Positions 50,575 to 55,823 of a stretch of DNA of 64,000 nucleotides are shown here, piece after piece. A program made the position numbers and the translations under genes. The DNA comes from Squalus acanthias. Taxonomy: Eukaryota. How positions within the stretch are numbered: the stretch's first letter is position 1; each line of letters begins with the position of its first letter. The notes beneath the pieces are model-generated. The model had not been told where the DNA came from. It did no database searches and saw only the letters and a program-made list of their open reading frames with translations. The DNA lies in assembly GCA_030390025.1 (NCBI GenBank), contig CM059427.1, positions 5,580,001-5,644,000 of the forward strand, in the 5' to 3' direction.

Positions 50575-53500
50575 TTTTTTTATTCGATCCTGGGATGTGG
50601 GCGTCACTGGCAAGACCAGCATTTATTGCCCATCCCTAATTGCCCTTGAGAAGGTGGTGGTGAGCCGCCTTCTTGAACCACTGCAGTCCGTGTGGTGAAG
50701 GTACTCCTAAAGTGCTGTTCAGGAGGGAGTTCCAGGATTTTGACCCAGCAACGATGAAGGAATGGCAATATATTTCCAAGTCAGGATGGTGTGTGACTTG
50801 GAGGGGAACTTGCAGCTGATGGTGTTCCCATGCGCCTGCTGCCCTTGTCCTTCTAGGTGTTCGCGGGTTTGGGAGGTGGTGCCGAAGAAGCCTTGGTGAG
50901 TTGCTGCAGTGCATCTTGTAGATGGTACACACTGCAGCCATGGTGTGCCGGTGGTGTAGGGAGTGAATGTTTAAGGTGGTGGATGGGGTGCCGATCAAGC
51001 AGGCTGCTTTGTCCTGGATGGTGTCGAGCTTCTTGAGTGTTGTTGGAGCTGCAGTCATCCAGGCAAGTGGAGAGTATTCCATCACACTCCTTACTTGTGC
51101 CTTGTAGATGGTGGAAAGGCTTTGGGGAGTCAGGAGGTGAGACAGTTGCCGCAGAATACCCAGCCTCTGACCCGCTCTTGTTGCCACAGTATTTATGTGG
51201 CTGGTCCAGTTAAGTTTCTGGTCAATGGTAACCCCCAGGATCTTGATGGTGGGGCATTCGGTGATGGTAATGCCATTGAATGTCATGGGGGCGGTGGTTA
51301 GACTCTCGCTTGTTGTAGATAGTCATTGCCTGGCACTTCTGTAGCGTGAATGTTACTTGCCATCTATCAGCCCAAGCCTGAATGTCGACCAGGTCTTGAG
51401 TGCGTCATGGACGGCTTCATTATCTGAGGAGTTGCGAATGGAACTGAACACTGCAATCATCAGTGAACGTCCCCACTTCTGACCTTATGATGGAGGGAAG
51501 GTCAGTGATGAAGCAGCTGGAGATGGTTGGGCCTAGGACACTGCCCTGAGGAACTCCTGCAGTGATGTCCTGGGGCCGAGATGATTGACCTCCAACAACC
51601 ACAACCATCTTCCTTTGTGCTAGGTATGACTCCAGCCAGTGGAGAGTTTCCCTCTGATTCCCATTGACTTCAATTTTGCTAGGGCTCCTTGATGCCACAC
51701 TCGGTCACATACTGCCTTGATGTCAAGGGCAGTCACACTCACTTTCCTTCTGGAATTCAGCTCCTTTGTCTATGTTTGGACCAAGGCTGTAATGAGGTCT
51801 GGAGCAGAGTGGTCCTGGCGGAATCCAAACTGAGCATCAGTGAGCAGGTTATTGGTGAGTAAGTGCCGCTTGATAGCACTGTCGATGACACCTTCCATCA
51901 CTTTGCTGATGATTGAGAGTAGACTGGTGAGGTGGTAATTGGCCGGATTGGATTTGTCCTGCTTTTTGTGGACAGGACATACCTGGGCAGTTTTCCACAT
52001 TGTCAGGTAGATGCCAGAGTTGTAGCTGTACTGGAACACCGTGGCTAGTTCTGGAGCACAAGTCTTCAGCACGACAGCCGGGGTGTTGTCGAGGCCCATA
52101 GCCTTTGCTGTATCCAGTGCGCTCAGCTGTTTCTTGATATCACGTAGAGTGAATTGAATTGGCTGAAGACTGGCTTCTGTGATGGTCGGGACCTCAGGAG
52201 GAGCCAATGTGGATCATCCACTCGGCACTTCTGGCTGAAGATGGTTGCAAGCGCTTCAGCCTTGTCTTTTGCACTCGCATGCTGGGCTCCGCCTTCATTG
52301 AGGGTGGGGCTATTCATGGAGCCTTCTCCTCCCATTAGTTGTTTAAATGTCCAACACCATTCACGACGATGTGGCAGGGCTGCAGAGCTTTTATCTGATC
52401 CGTTGATTGTGGGATCGCTTATCTCTGTCTATAGCATGCTGCTTCTGCTGTTTAGCATGAATGTAGTCCTGTGTTGCAGCTTCCCCAGGTTGGCACCTCA
52501 TTTTTAGGTATGCCTGGTGCTGCTCCTAGCATGCTCTTCTACACTCCTCATTCAACCATGGTTGGTCCCTTGGCTTGATGGTAATGGTAGAGTGAGGGAT
52601 ATGCCGTCCATGAGGTTACAGATTGTGGTGGAATACAATTCTGCTGCTGCTGATGGCCCACAGCACCTCATGGATGCCCAGTTTTGAGCTGCTAGATCTG
52701 TTGTGAATCTATCCCATTTAGCACGGTGGTAGTGCCACACAACACGATGGAGGGTGTCCTCCGTGTGAAGACGGGACTTCGTCTCCACAAGGACTGTGCG
52801 GCAGTCATTGCTACCAATGCTATTGTGGACAGATGCATCTGCGACAGGTAGATTGGTGAGGACGAGGTCTAATAGATTTTTCTCTCGTGTTGGTTCTCTC
52901 ACTACCTGCCGCAGGCCCAATCTGGCAGCTATGTCCTTCAAGACTCGGTCAGTAGTGGTGCTACCGAGCCACTCTTGGTGATTGACATTGAAGTCCCCCA
53001 CCCAGAGTACATTCTGTGCCCTTGCTACTCTCAGTGCTTCTTCCAAGTGGTGTTCAACATGGAGGAGTACTGATTCATCAGCTGAAGGTTGGGTAGATTG
53101 GGAAACTACATTAAAAGTTATAATGGTACACAAGCAATGGCTAGCATTTAAAGAATGAATACATAATTTACAACAAATATACATTCCTTTTAAGGCACAA
53201 AAACCCCACAGGAAAAGTGGTCAACTGTGCCTAGGAAGAGAAGTTAAAGATAGTATTAGATCAAAGGAAGAGGCTTATAATGTTGCCCAAAAGAGTAGCA
53301 AGCTTGAGGATTGGGAGGATTTGAGAATTCAGCAAAGGAGGACCAAGAAATTGATCAAGAAAGGGAAAATAGAATGAGAGTAAACTAGCGAGAGACATAA
53401 AAACAGCCTGTAAAAGCTTCTATAGATATGTAAAAAGGAAAAGATTAGCAAAAGTAAATGTGGGCCCCTTACAGGCTGAGACAGGAGAAATTATATTGGG

Positions 53501-55823
53501 GAATAAGGAAATGGCAGAGAAATTAAACAAATACTTTGTGTCTGTCTTCATGGAAGACGACACAAAAAACCTCCCGGAAATAGTAGAGAACCAAGGCTCT
53601 CGAGAGAATGAAGAACTGAAAGAAATTAGTATTAGTAAAAAATATAGTACTGGAGAAATTAATGGGACTGAAAGCCAATAAATCTCCTGGACCTGATGAC
53701 CTGCATCCTAGGGTTTTGAAAGAGTTGGCTATAGAGATAGTGGATGCATTGGTTGTCATTTTCCAAAATTCCATAGATTCTAAAACGGTTCCTGCGGATT
53801 GGAAGGTAGCAAATGTAACCCTACTATTTAAGAAAGGAGGGAGAGAGAAAACGGGGAACTACAGACCAGTTAGCCTGACATCAGCAGTAGGGAAAATGCT
53901 AGAATCTATTTTTAAGGAGTTTTTTGAGGTTGTAACTAGCAGAATAGATGAGGGGGAACCAGTGGATGTGGTGTATTTGGATTTTCAGAAGGCATTCGAT
54001 AAGGTGCCACACAAGAGGTTATTAAACAAAATTAGGGCTCATGGGATTGGGGGTAATATACTAGCATGGATTGAGGATTGGTTAACGGACAGAAAACAGA
54101 GAGTAGGAATAAATGAGTCAATTTCAGGTTGGCAGGCTGTAACTAGTGGGGTACTGCAAGGATCAGTGCTTGGGCCTCAGCTATTCACAATCTACATAAA
54201 TAATTTGGATGAGGACACCAAATGTAATTTATCCAAGTTTACTGATGATACAAAGCTGGGTGGGAATGTAAGTTGTGAGGAGGATGCAAGGCGACTTTAA
54301 GGGGATATGGACAGGCTAAGTGAGTGGGCAAGAACATGGCAAATGGAATATATTGTGGAGAAATGTGAAGTTATCCACTTTGGTAGGAAAAATAGAAAAG
54401 CAGAGTATTTTTTAAATGGTGAGAGATTGGGAAATGTTGGTGTTCAGAGGGACCTGGGTGTCCTTGTACAAGAATCACTGAAAGTTAACATGCAGGTACA
54501 ACAAGCAATTAGTAAAGCAAATGGTTTACAAGAGGATTTGAGTATATGAGTAAAGACGTCTTACTGCAATTATATAGGGCTCTGGTGAGACCACACCTGG
54601 AGTATTGTGTATAGTTTTGGTCTCCTTATCTAAGGAAGGATATACTTGCCATAGAGGGAGTGCAACAAAGGTTCACCAGTCTGGTTCCTGGGATGGGGGG
54701 GATTGTCCTATGAGGACAGATTGAGTAGACTAGGCCTATATTCTCTAGAGTTTAGAAGAATGGGAGGTGATCTCATTGAAGCATACAAAATTCTTACAGG
54801 ACTTGACAGGGAGGATGTTTCCCCTGGCTGGGGAGTCTAGAACCAGGGGTCACAGTCTCAGAATAAGGGGTTGGCCATTTAGGACTGAGATGAGGAGAAA
54901 TTTCTTCACTCAGAGGGTGGTGAATCTTTGGAATTCTCTACCCCAGAGGGCTGTGGAGGCTCAGTTGTTGAGTATATTCAAGACAGAGAGCGATAGATTT
55001 TTGAATATTAAGGGAATCGAGGGCTATGGGGATAGTAGCGATGAGGTGGAAGATCAGCCATGATCTTATTGAATGGTGGAGCAGGCTCGATGGGCCAAAT
55101 GGCCTACTCCTGCTCCTATTTCTTATGTTCTTATGTAATCAGCAGGGGGTTTGCTTGCCCATGTTTGACCTGATGCCATGAGACTTCAGGGCCACTCCCT
55201 CCCAACTGTATACCACTGTGCCGCCATCTCTGGTGAGTCTGTCCTGCCGGTGGGACAGGACATACCCAGGGATGGTGATTGAGGAGTCTGGGACATTGGC
55301 TGAAAGGTATGATTCTGTGAGTATGATTGTCAAGCTGTTGCTTGACAGTCTGTGGGACAGCTCTCCCAATTTAGGCACAAGTCTCCAGATGTTAGTGAGG
55401 AGGGCAGGGTTGACTGCTGGGTATGCCGTTGTCGTGTCCAAAGCCGGTGCCAAGGTCGATGCCGGGTGGTCCATCCAGTTTTAATCATATTGTTTTTCGT
55501 CGTGGTTGTGTACAACTGAGTGGCTTGCTGCGCCATTTCAGAGGGCATTTAAGAGTCAAACACATTGCTGTGGGTCTGGAGTCACATATAGGCCAGACCA
55601 GGTAAGGACGGCAGATTTCCTTCTCAAAAGATGGGTTTTTAACGGCAATCCAATAGTTTCATGGTCACCATTACTGATACTAGCTTTTTATTCTAGGTTT
55701 ATTTAATTAACTGATTTTAAAGTCCCCAGTTGCCATGGTGGGATTTGAACTTGCGTCTCTGAATCATTATTCCAGGCCTCTGGATTACTAGTCCAGTAAC
55801 ATAACCACTATGCTACCGTTCCC
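50575..55823 (-). mobile_element. tRNA-headed, ORF1-less CR1-group LINE (~3.2 kb; segments 55138-55823 and 50575-53087), disabled copy
   Basis: Sense strand: A box TAGCATAGTGG (55815-55805), B box GTTCAAATCC (55750-55741), Meta-like body, then EN (IILTESYL..IPGY..RQDR..GG; WVGDFNV; LLDLVLTN), RT ([35 protein letters not shown]) and C-terminus; tail gggcaattagggatgggcaataaatgctgg..cacatccca and an A-rich end. Confidence 0.88.
53088..55137 (+). mobile_element. CR1 LINE inserted into the endonuclease region of the tRNA-headed LINE
   Basis: ORF 53662..54300 KSPGPDDLHPRVLKE..NYRPVSLTS..YLDFQKAFDKVPH..QGSVLGP..FTDDTK; tail ttcttatgttcttatg. Confidence 0.95.

Follow-up and report, generated by a model that had tools for sequence, protein, structure and literature searches.

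The element at positions 50575-55823 of the window (the whole 64,000-nucleotide stretch of Squalus acanthias DNA that was analysed) is, by its sequence, a dead copy of the abundant elasmobranch Zenon, a LINE of the CR1 group, and RNA polymerase III (Pol III) probably makes the Zenon transcript. Pol III transcription together with cap-independent, non-AUG translation is the best model for the elasmobranch Zenon, and one that we consider fairly likely. The Zenon of sharks and rays is an already known family and not a new one, with Zenon-1 consensuses published for SquAca, CarCar, RhiTyp, ScyCan and HypSab (PMC13343379). The main text of that paper has no occurrence of 'tRNA' or 'polymerase III', and the tRNA head, the purge of T runs and the missing AUG are without description in it. 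The features of the copy are as follows.

50575-55823, minus strand: decayed full-length Zenon LINE copy, its two pieces 86% and 93% identical to the family majority.
55729-55823, minus strand: tRNA-derived head with the common 5' end GGGAAC, where copy 5' ends pile up; weak Rfam tRNA match on copies L235 and L139.
55805-55815, minus strand: A box, 8 nt past the 5' end; TRGCNNARYGG matched in 5/5 published elasmobranch Zenon-1 5' ends (by eye).
55780-55796, minus strand: anticodon arm with loop CTAGTAA (anticodon AGT, Thr).
55759-55775, minus strand: second hairpin, lying between the A and B boxes and duplicating the anticodon arm in tandem (21-nt tandem repeat).
55741-55751, minus strand: B box, GGTTCGAATCC in 3/5 published consensuses and AGTTCAAATCC in one.
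55501-55653, minus strand: conserved structured body (majority nt 171-338), a candidate cap-independent translation element.
55517-55541, minus strand: hairpin whose 7-nt loop resembles an anticodon loop (CTAGCAA in the family, anticodon AGC; the window copy departs from it by two changes).
55501-55503, minus strand: in-frame GCT site complementary to the CTAGCAA loop, mutated in the window copy.
55138-55500, minus strand: basic leader and N-terminal endonuclease without an in-frame ATG; first endonuclease motif at 55391-55393.
53088-55137, plus strand: nested 5'-truncated canonical CR1 (RVT_1 E 1.7e-18; copies 90-94% identical).
50636-53087, minus strand: rest of the single ORF, with endonuclease, reverse transcriptase and C-terminal region (Exo_endo_phos_2 and RVT_1 domains).
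50636-50638, minus strand: stop TAG of the ORF.
50575-50635, minus strand: 53-nt 3' UTR with a stem-loop, then a tail of the form T(n)A(n), which is T1 in the window copy; common to SINE-type copies.
50622-50627, minus strand: AATAAA within the 3' UTR.

The earlier note had described a minus-strand element of ~3.2 kb that appears once the CR1 at 53088-55137 is removed, and these coordinates were confirmed; the family majority is 3.3 kb (3301 nt) long. Measured against the majority frame, the window copy carries 16 deletion and two insertion events and three in-frame stops. The 30 aligned copies differ from the majority by 3-6.5%, and the frame is broken in every one of them. The majority itself gives a single 972-codon frame with endonuclease (EN) and reverse transcriptase (RT) catalytic motifs, and the variants shared within it, 65 synonymous and 47 non-synonymous, are a sign of purifying selection. 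The best full-length relatives of the majority protein are ~40% identical to it, and most differences between the majority and the first 400 nt of SquAca_Zenon-1 fall at positions that vary among the copies here (by eye). The element has the Zenon layout of one ORF with an APE endonuclease and RT and a 3' poly(A) tail rather than a microsatellite; at 3.3 kb, with 972 codons under purifying selection, it falls outside the definition of a SINE as short, non-coding and non-autonomous. The lack of an ORF1, as first read from the window, holds for the single EN and RT frame of the majority. PMC13343379 describes the elasmobranch Zenon as an ORF1-less, poly(A)-tailed LINE of the CR1 group and gives ORF1 absence as a trait of all its Zenons, so that this absence is not evidence for Pol III.

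The tRNA-derived head is confirmed as belonging to the mobile unit. Among 29 copies chosen by endonuclease sequence alone, 13 extend to nt 1-10 and 16 are 5'-truncated, six of these beginning within the head or body and ten further in; an alternative common 5' sequence at the junction was sought in the 29 and none was found, and the concern that other copies might lack the head is not borne out. Of 39 retrieved loci with both head and EN, all run on into the coding part and 34 extend to the tail. When loci were picked by the head only (the window copy among them), 27 of 30 run into coding sequence, in agreement with the view that the head has no SINE tail of its own, and the remaining three are internal deletions joining head and tail. 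The head is also present in the five published shark and ray consensuses. The expectation that copies would share it inside target-site duplications (TSDs) was correct for the head and not for the duplications, which reach at least 3 nt in 6/38 copies against a null mean of 4.1, none above chance; short duplications are likewise rare around 40 T4+ tails. As TSDs are undetectable above chance, it is the pile-up of copy ends that places the 5' boundary.

Both boxes lie where they had been placed at first. The A box of the window copy reads TAGCATAGTGG (55815-55805), and in majority numbering the A box occupies nt 9-19 and the B box nt 73-83, which is type 2 Pol III spacing from a defined 5' end. 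The A box is retained in 5/5 published consensuses and the B box in 4/5 although the spacer has diverged; the B box of the stingray consensus is one base short. From the anticodon we infer a tRNA-Thr identity for the head, and MetaSINE heads are likewise tRNA-Thr-like. Among 25 older SINE-type copies, 11, or about half, have a gap in place of the second hairpin, and its stem is altered yet still paired in other species (by eye). ARAGORN called no tRNA in the head, and the Rfam tRNA model reached 24.4 bits (E 0.008) on the head of copy L235, short of its gathering score, and did not match the window copy.

The sense strand of 50581-53087 is free of TTTT, as had been claimed, with four AAA and no AAAA on the plus strand. 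The missing T4 in this single copy exceeds chance only modestly (0 versus 3.2 expected from mononucleotide shuffles, P 0.026, and 1.5 from dinucleotide shuffles, P 0.16); T3 occurs four times versus 16.2 (P<0.002) and 10.4 (P 0.004) in the same two nulls. Comparison with the majority confirmed that the lone sense T4 of the copy, at 55626-55629, adjoins a deletion, and it is there because this short copy-specific deletion fuses two T stretches. The nested CR1, described earlier as rich in such runs, has nine T4+ runs when read in its own sense orientation, those first listed included.

The family majority might have contained sense T4+ runs and has none: its 3301 nt hold no T4 and seven T3, against 16 A4, 11 C4 and nine G4, and an internal T4+ terminator is thus absent, as in a type 2 Pol III unit. 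Whole-element shuffles give P 0.014 for T4 and P 0.0003 for T3. With codon shuffles, which preserve protein and codon usage, the T4 absence is not significant (P 0.10 and 0.17), T3 is found five times versus 11.2 expected (P 0.006), and near-terminators are depleted, with one 4-of-5-T window versus 9.5 (P 0.007) and eight 4-of-6-T windows versus 28 (P<0.0005); the same window test for A, C and G shows no depletion. With the T4 absence by itself short of significance, it is T3, near-terminators and the comparison sets that carry the case. Synonymous T use falls from 179/481 to 5/42 where a run of at least 3 would arise (Fisher P 0.0006). The preference of TTC over TTT for Phe that had been anticipated is present, TTT:TTC being 3:15 in the Zenon majority versus 16:6 in the CR1 of the genome, which has six T4 in 1371 nt. 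None of 73 related LINE loci with at least 1.5 kb of coding sequence is free of T4 (median 5.9 per kb). The observed/shuffled ratios of 0.45, 0.11 and 0.29 in Zenon compare with minima of 0.77, 0.76 and 0.81 among 69 relatives, on an uneven basis of a consensus for Zenon and single contigs for the relatives, and the Zenon z-scores (-2.3 to -3.2) do not go beyond the most extreme values among the relatives. Overall T content is low in the element (19% versus 21-36% in relatives), so part of this contrast is composition. Subfamily variants create T3 at 0/196 sites versus ~2.6 expected, which is not significant; one T4-creating change is common to 5/58 copies from different subfamilies. A search for an older divergent subfamily for an independent T-run test returned only the main family or mostly SINE-type copies. 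Overall, the results support a depletion of T runs that goes beyond codon usage and is specific both to T and to the Zenon family. The depletion behind the selection against oligo-T that the earlier note proposed holds for T3 and near-terminators and not for T4 alone (P 0.10 in codon shuffles), and base or codon composition, its suggested alternative, explains part of the contrast with relatives and not the T3 depletion beyond the codon nulls.

Runs of T4+ are common only at the 3' end, downstream of the AATAAA, being found in 19/105 Zenon tails versus 0/355 internal T-A(n) control sites; genome-wide, 5295 tails have T4+ versus 16424 with T1. The T+A length is constant at 10-11 nt in 28/40 T4+ tails, and ageing SINE tails show T elongation (PMC8466645); the tail T runs of Zenon may reflect growth after insertion. 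A co-resident SINE of the genome carries the same head, body and tail as Zenon, unlike SacSINE1 (Deu), which has an L2 tail. The T+ type of tRNA SINE (B2, Dip and Ves; PMC8466645) shares with Zenon an A/B-box head, a conserved body and a LINE-type tail with AATAAA, a variable T run and then A, but is short, non-coding and non-autonomous, whereas Zenon is 3.3 kb long and protein-coding.

The first Met of the majority frame is at codon 286, with none before the endonuclease, and the seven ATGs upstream either lie in another frame or run into stops; among the 44 relatives shown, most carry a Met shortly before the EN motif. In the absence of an AUG, translation must be non-canonical, as had been argued at the outset. 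The body in front of the frame is near-invariant across five species, with candidate helices, and is common to the older SINE of the S. acanthias genome; the T4-creating deletion of the window copy lies in it. The majority frame has an in-frame stop three codons ahead of GCT, and in the family an in-frame ACG with G at -3 follows the GCT, replaced by AAA in the stingray consensus. GCT and the EN motif are separated by a multiple of three nucleotides in 43/60 copies (13 not, four unscored) and in 12 of the 14 scorable EN-picked copies, and the distances in the 60 copies cluster at 117 (26/60) and 120 (11/60). Four of the five published Zenon-1 consensuses hold the frame over 15- and 18-nt linkers (by eye), and the 17-nt linker of the published SquAca_Zenon-1 is out of frame. 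An out-of-frame ATG present in all five was rejected as the start, as only 14/58 copies have it.

This non-AUG start directly behind a structure resembles the dicistrovirus IGR IRES (PMC4132737), in which an AUG-less frame also follows a structured leader of 150-250 nt, and both leaders finish with a loop that looks like an anticodon loop and is the complement of a triplet in the frame. The putative PKI of Zenon has 3-4 bp, with the frame conserved and no covariation or compensatory change, against a minimum of 4 bp in IAPV; the IGR-type core (PKII/PKIII, SLIV, SLV and L1.1) was not found, and the Zenon helices are candidates only. Rfam IRES models with E up to 10 did not match a clean copy, and the hairpin motif had no match in viral contigs. 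The hairpin-plus-codon pattern occurs once in 10,000 shuffles, but was defined post hoc and is not counted as evidence. On this analogy, IGR-IRES-like tRNA mimicry at the Zenon start is a tentative idea that we regard as rather doubtful.

The elasmobranch Zenon-1 consensuses are likewise 3.3 kb long, without ORF1 and with a poly(A) tail, and a single ORF, ~3.3 kb, a poly(A) tail and internally deleted partners recur in the Zenons of Lepidoptera (PMC6740152), hagfish and coelacanth. Persaeus, a SIDE of the lepidopteran Zenon with the Zenon 5' UTR, is reportedly without tRNA homology or a Pol III promoter (PMC6740152), unlike the elasmobranch Zenon. In the hagfish and coelacanth Zenons, whose consensus 5' ends may be incomplete, the first 400 nt have no tRNA head. 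No A and B boxes within 700 nt upstream and no body similarity were found in 80 metagenome relative loci, many of them on short contigs. R2 is cut out of a Pol I co-transcript and its nuclease is restriction-like. Zenon differs in its APE nuclease, its own predicted internal promoter and the lack of any Rfam ribozyme match. R2 and the LINEs with HDV-like ribozymes have a single ORF, as Zenon does, and uncapped RNA with supposed internal initiation, as is proposed for Zenon (PMC3414825).

A Pol II-transcribed LINE in which the head is a passenger, captured from the 5' half of a SINE by template switching, is an unlikely alternative. LINEs are held to be Pol II transcripts (PMC5786205), and R2 acquires tRNA or snRNA at its 5' end by template jumps, one case of which may have founded a subfamily (PMC3414825). 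The head would then serve as an internal Pol II promoter or RNA structure, with leaky scanning to the ACG, which is in frame and has its G at -3; against such scanning stand the seven ATGs upstream of the frame and the AAA of the stingray. T scarcity would reflect composition, with which the non-significance of the T4 absence agrees, or selection against U-rich splice acceptors and cleavage elements, but C runs are undepleted, contrary to avoidance of pyrimidine tracts, and the first 360 nt contain three AATAAA. Both boxes, moreover, are kept across sharks and rays despite changed neighbouring bases.

Mixed or historical use, with Pol III active in the era of the T purge or on some copies, Pol II read-through as well and a body that translates regardless of a cap, is improbable. 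The 3-6.5% divergence and the lack of an intact frame in the copies examined mean that present activity is not shown, and the abundance of the element in presumed RNA contigs of several organisms (six runs covered, unstranded, with RNA status guessed) agrees with read-through from old copies. A start site of its own accounts better than read-through for the sharp 5' end, 8 nt ahead of the A box, however, and the sampled subfamilies show the T depletion in their source sequence. The very improbable reading as a non-autonomous chimera or chance (a SINE inserted at a LINE, or a long SINE with dead LINE sequence that another element moves, its T scarcity due to GC content) can appeal to the 0/30 intact frames and the lack of TSDs above chance, but is largely refuted by the 972-codon majority frame with its catalytic motifs, by the 65:47 shared variants and by a head that has no tail behind it in 27/30 head-picked loci and is common to five species.

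In the Pol III model, a template switch before the shark/ray split would have linked the 5' half of a tRNA SINE mobilised by Zenon with the LINE that was its partner. TFIIIC and Pol III would start at the common 5' G, 8 nt ahead of the A box, read through a body and frame from which selection on source elements had removed internal terminators, and terminate at a T run located at the 3' end or behind it; AAUAAA may then direct polyadenylation of the RNA, as in T+ SINEs. The body would load ribosomes on the uncapped RNA, with initiation near nt 336-341, either IGR-IRES-like, the loop AGC pairing with GCU to fix the frame, or from the ACG that lies in frame. For target-primed reverse transcription the Zenon protein would bind the 3' stem-loop, and it would also mobilise the SINE made of head, body and tail. 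A full exit from Pol II and the cap, with a 3.3-kb Pol III mRNA, a T+ SINE-type end and a pseudoknot start without AUG or initiator tRNA, is possible, if on the unlikely side.

Retrotransposons are classified into LINEs, which are Pol II-transcribed, coding and autonomous, and SINEs, which are Pol III-transcribed, non-coding and parasitic, and Pol III is thought to make only short non-coding RNAs. A natural Pol III mRNA of several kilobases, conserved in both sharks and rays, would, if true, break this split and show how vertebrates can translate uncapped Pol III RNA. The role of conserved SINE bodies has been stated as unknown (PMC4824008); if Zenon has fully left Pol II and the cap, its SINE-like body would be a ribosome-binding element, giving at least one such body a function. 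Zenon makes this role testable, together with the IGR-type IRESs that have been raised as speculation for LINEs (PMC3894237), and a compact Pol III-driven unit that both codes and integrates could interest work on RNA expression.

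The studied element belongs to Zenon, an ORF1-less CR1-group LINE family. As the earlier note had proposed, once the CR1 on the + strand (53088-55137) is excised, what remains is a minus-strand element running from 55823 to about 50575, and the sequence of this window copy contains the following features.

55815-55805, minus strand: A box.
55751-55741, minus strand: B box.
Inside 55823 to about 50575, minus strand: EN and RT remnants.

The AAA and AAAA counts of that note (four and none, on the + strand of 50581-53087) also proved correct. The sole sense T4 of the element is the product of a deletion in this copy, and the nested CR1 has nine sense T4+ runs. 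By shuffles of the window copy alone, its lack of T4 is borderline (mononucleotide P = 0.026, dinucleotide P = 0.16) and its T3 runs are clearly depleted. In a second Zenon copy (L087/L244), a CR1 has inserted independently at the point that corresponds to window 55138 (nt 745 of the family consensus, hereafter the majority), where the target is similar to the CR1 3' repeat; this may be a CR1 insertion hotspot. The window also holds two further 5'-truncated Zenon 3' ends (13839-14257 and 47138-47401) and additional CR1 fragments (14603-15536, 38434-39529 and 60079-63927; 69-92% similarity to the nested CR1).

The majority, built in-script from 30 copies diverging from it by 3-6.5%, is 3301 nt long. 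Its single stop-to-stop frame spans 972 codons and carries EN and RT motifs; a 3' UTR of 53 nt and an A tail follow. None of the 30 copies retains an intact frame, and in-frame shared variants are synonymous in 65 cases and non-synonymous in 47. All 39 loci fetched from the 3.7 Gb genome with head plus EN run on from the tRNA-derived head into the coding part, and 34 extend to the tail. Because this search favours the head, searches with the head alone and the endonuclease alone were added. Coding sequence lies behind the head in 27 of 30 head-picked loci, the other three being head-plus-tail deletions. The endonuclease search gave 29 other copies, of which 13 extend to nt 1-10 of the head; six start inside the head or the conserved structured body behind it and ten further in, and an alternative shared 5' sequence at the junction was found in none of the 29. 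TSDs are not above chance (6/38 copies; null 4.1). The main rival explanation, which we regard as unlikely, is that Pol II transcribes the element and that its head was captured. For small-RNA 5' ends arising through template jumps, R2 elements are a reported precedent (PMC3414825).

The majority contains no T4 and seven T3 runs, compared with 16 A4, 11 C4 and nine G4. The T-run depletion claimed earlier holds against synonymous-codon shuffles for T3 (5 versus 11.2, P = 0.006), 4-of-5-T windows (1 versus 9.5, P = 0.007) and 4-of-6-T windows (8 versus 28, P < 0.0005), but not for T4 alone (0 versus 1.9, P = 0.10); equivalent A, C and G windows show no depletion. Synonymous T use falls from 179/481 to 5/42 where T would create a run of at least three (P = 0.0006). 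For Phe, TTC is used more often than TTT, as predicted (TTT:TTC 3:15, versus 16:6 in the genome's CR1, where T runs are not depleted, with six T4 in 1371 nt). Metagenomes supplied 80 related LINE loci for comparison; T4 is present in all 73 with a coding match of at least 1.5 kb, and observed/shuffled ratios are never below 0.76 in the 69 loci that have a long open frame (Zenon 0.45, 0.11 and 0.29). However, Zenon is T-poor overall (19%), its z-scores fall inside the relatives' extremes, the comparison sets a consensus against single contigs, and one change that creates a T4 is present in 5/58 copies, scattered across subfamilies.

The 3' end has the order AATAAA, stem-loop and T(n)A(n) tail, as in T+ SINEs (PMC8466645, in part). 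T4+ occurs in 19/105 tails versus 0/355 internal T-A(n) sites, and genome-wide in 5295 tails versus 16424 with T1. At window 50575-50590 and genome-wide the format is T(1-11)A(n), T and A together amounting to about 10-11 nt, resembling ageing T+ SINE tails, whose T runs are described as growing longer in the same part of PMC8466645. A combined T+A length of 10-11 nt was measured in 28 of 40 T4+ tails, so the T4+ tails are compatible with Pol III and no proof of it. Pieces of the Zenon C-terminal region are contained in annotated shark protein isoforms (P0010, P0012, P0015, P0021 and P0023), either by exonisation or as annotation noise.

The head gives weak matches to the Rfam tRNA model in clean copies (24.4 and 22.9 bits, below gathering) and no tRNA with ARAGORN; its anticodon loop has AGT, which suggests a Thr identity. 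An extra hairpin, lying between the A and B boxes, duplicates the anticodon arm in tandem; it is absent from 11/25 loci of an older family of SINE type, which has head, body and tail in common with Zenon. In this family (L130-L154) the body differs by a few fixed changes, a fifth base pair is gained in the anticodon-like stem and many copies end at or just before the GCT described next; one 26-nt variant has 1671 exact matches genome-wide.

In Zenon the GCT lies in frame 12 nt behind the hairpin that ends the body, and is complementary to the AGC at the centre of its 7-nt, anticodon-loop-like loop CTAGCAA. The first Met of the 972-codon frame is codon 286, whereas most relatives shown have a Met a short way upstream of the first EN motif; upstream ATGs in the majority are out of frame or closed, and an out-of-frame ATG considered as a start was found in just 14/58 copies. 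GCT and EN motif stand a multiple of 3 nt apart in 43/60 copies (13 not, four unscored; most commonly 117 nt, n = 26, and 120 nt, n = 11), in 12/14 scorable endonuclease-picked copies and, by eye, in four of five published consensuses, as excerpted, SquAca_Zenon-1 being the exception. Loop and GCT resemble PKI of dicistrovirus IGR IRESs (PMC4132737, in part), and possible IGR IRESs in LINEs have been raised (PMC3894237, in part); against this, the pairing spans 3-4 bp. Compensatory change in it was not seen, and Rfam IRES and ribozyme models gave no matches. By this analogy an IGR-like start is conceivable but doubtful. The in-frame ACG directly behind GCT is a simpler rival start. The closest full-length relative, P0024, has M-A-T-K-K-N ahead of its basic leader and the shark frame reads A-T-K-N-N from GCT, as if an ATG had been lost just upstream; over six residues this may be chance. 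Majority nt 88-94 may pair with 225-231, and nt 214-221 may form a helix with 231-239, in which the consensus of the whale shark shows a single compensatory change; a pseudoknot in the body is possible.

Judged from sequence, the most likely reading, which we think reasonably probable, is that Pol III would transcribe the entire Zenon RNA from the tRNA head, that selection would have purged internal terminators and that the uncapped RNA would be translated via the structured leader, starting at a codon other than AUG. Zenon LINEs that lack ORF1 and end in poly(A) are known from sharks, rays, coelacanth and hagfish (PMC13343379, in part), and SquAca_Zenon-1 matches the window family by eye over its first 400 nt. 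Over those 400 nt the same head opens all five elasmobranch Zenon-1 consensuses, with the A box in five and an intact B box in four, the spacer hairpin altered yet still paired and the body almost invariant; the words 'tRNA' and 'polymerase III' have no matches in the main text of that paper. A lepidopteran Zenon derivative is reported to be without a Pol III promoter (PMC6740152). A literature search, with most subscription papers and Repbase reports outside its reach, found no such tRNA-headed or Pol III-transcribed LINE described. The family is thus a known one whose 5' architecture appears not to have been described before; the element would be categorically new if Pol III transcription were demonstrated.
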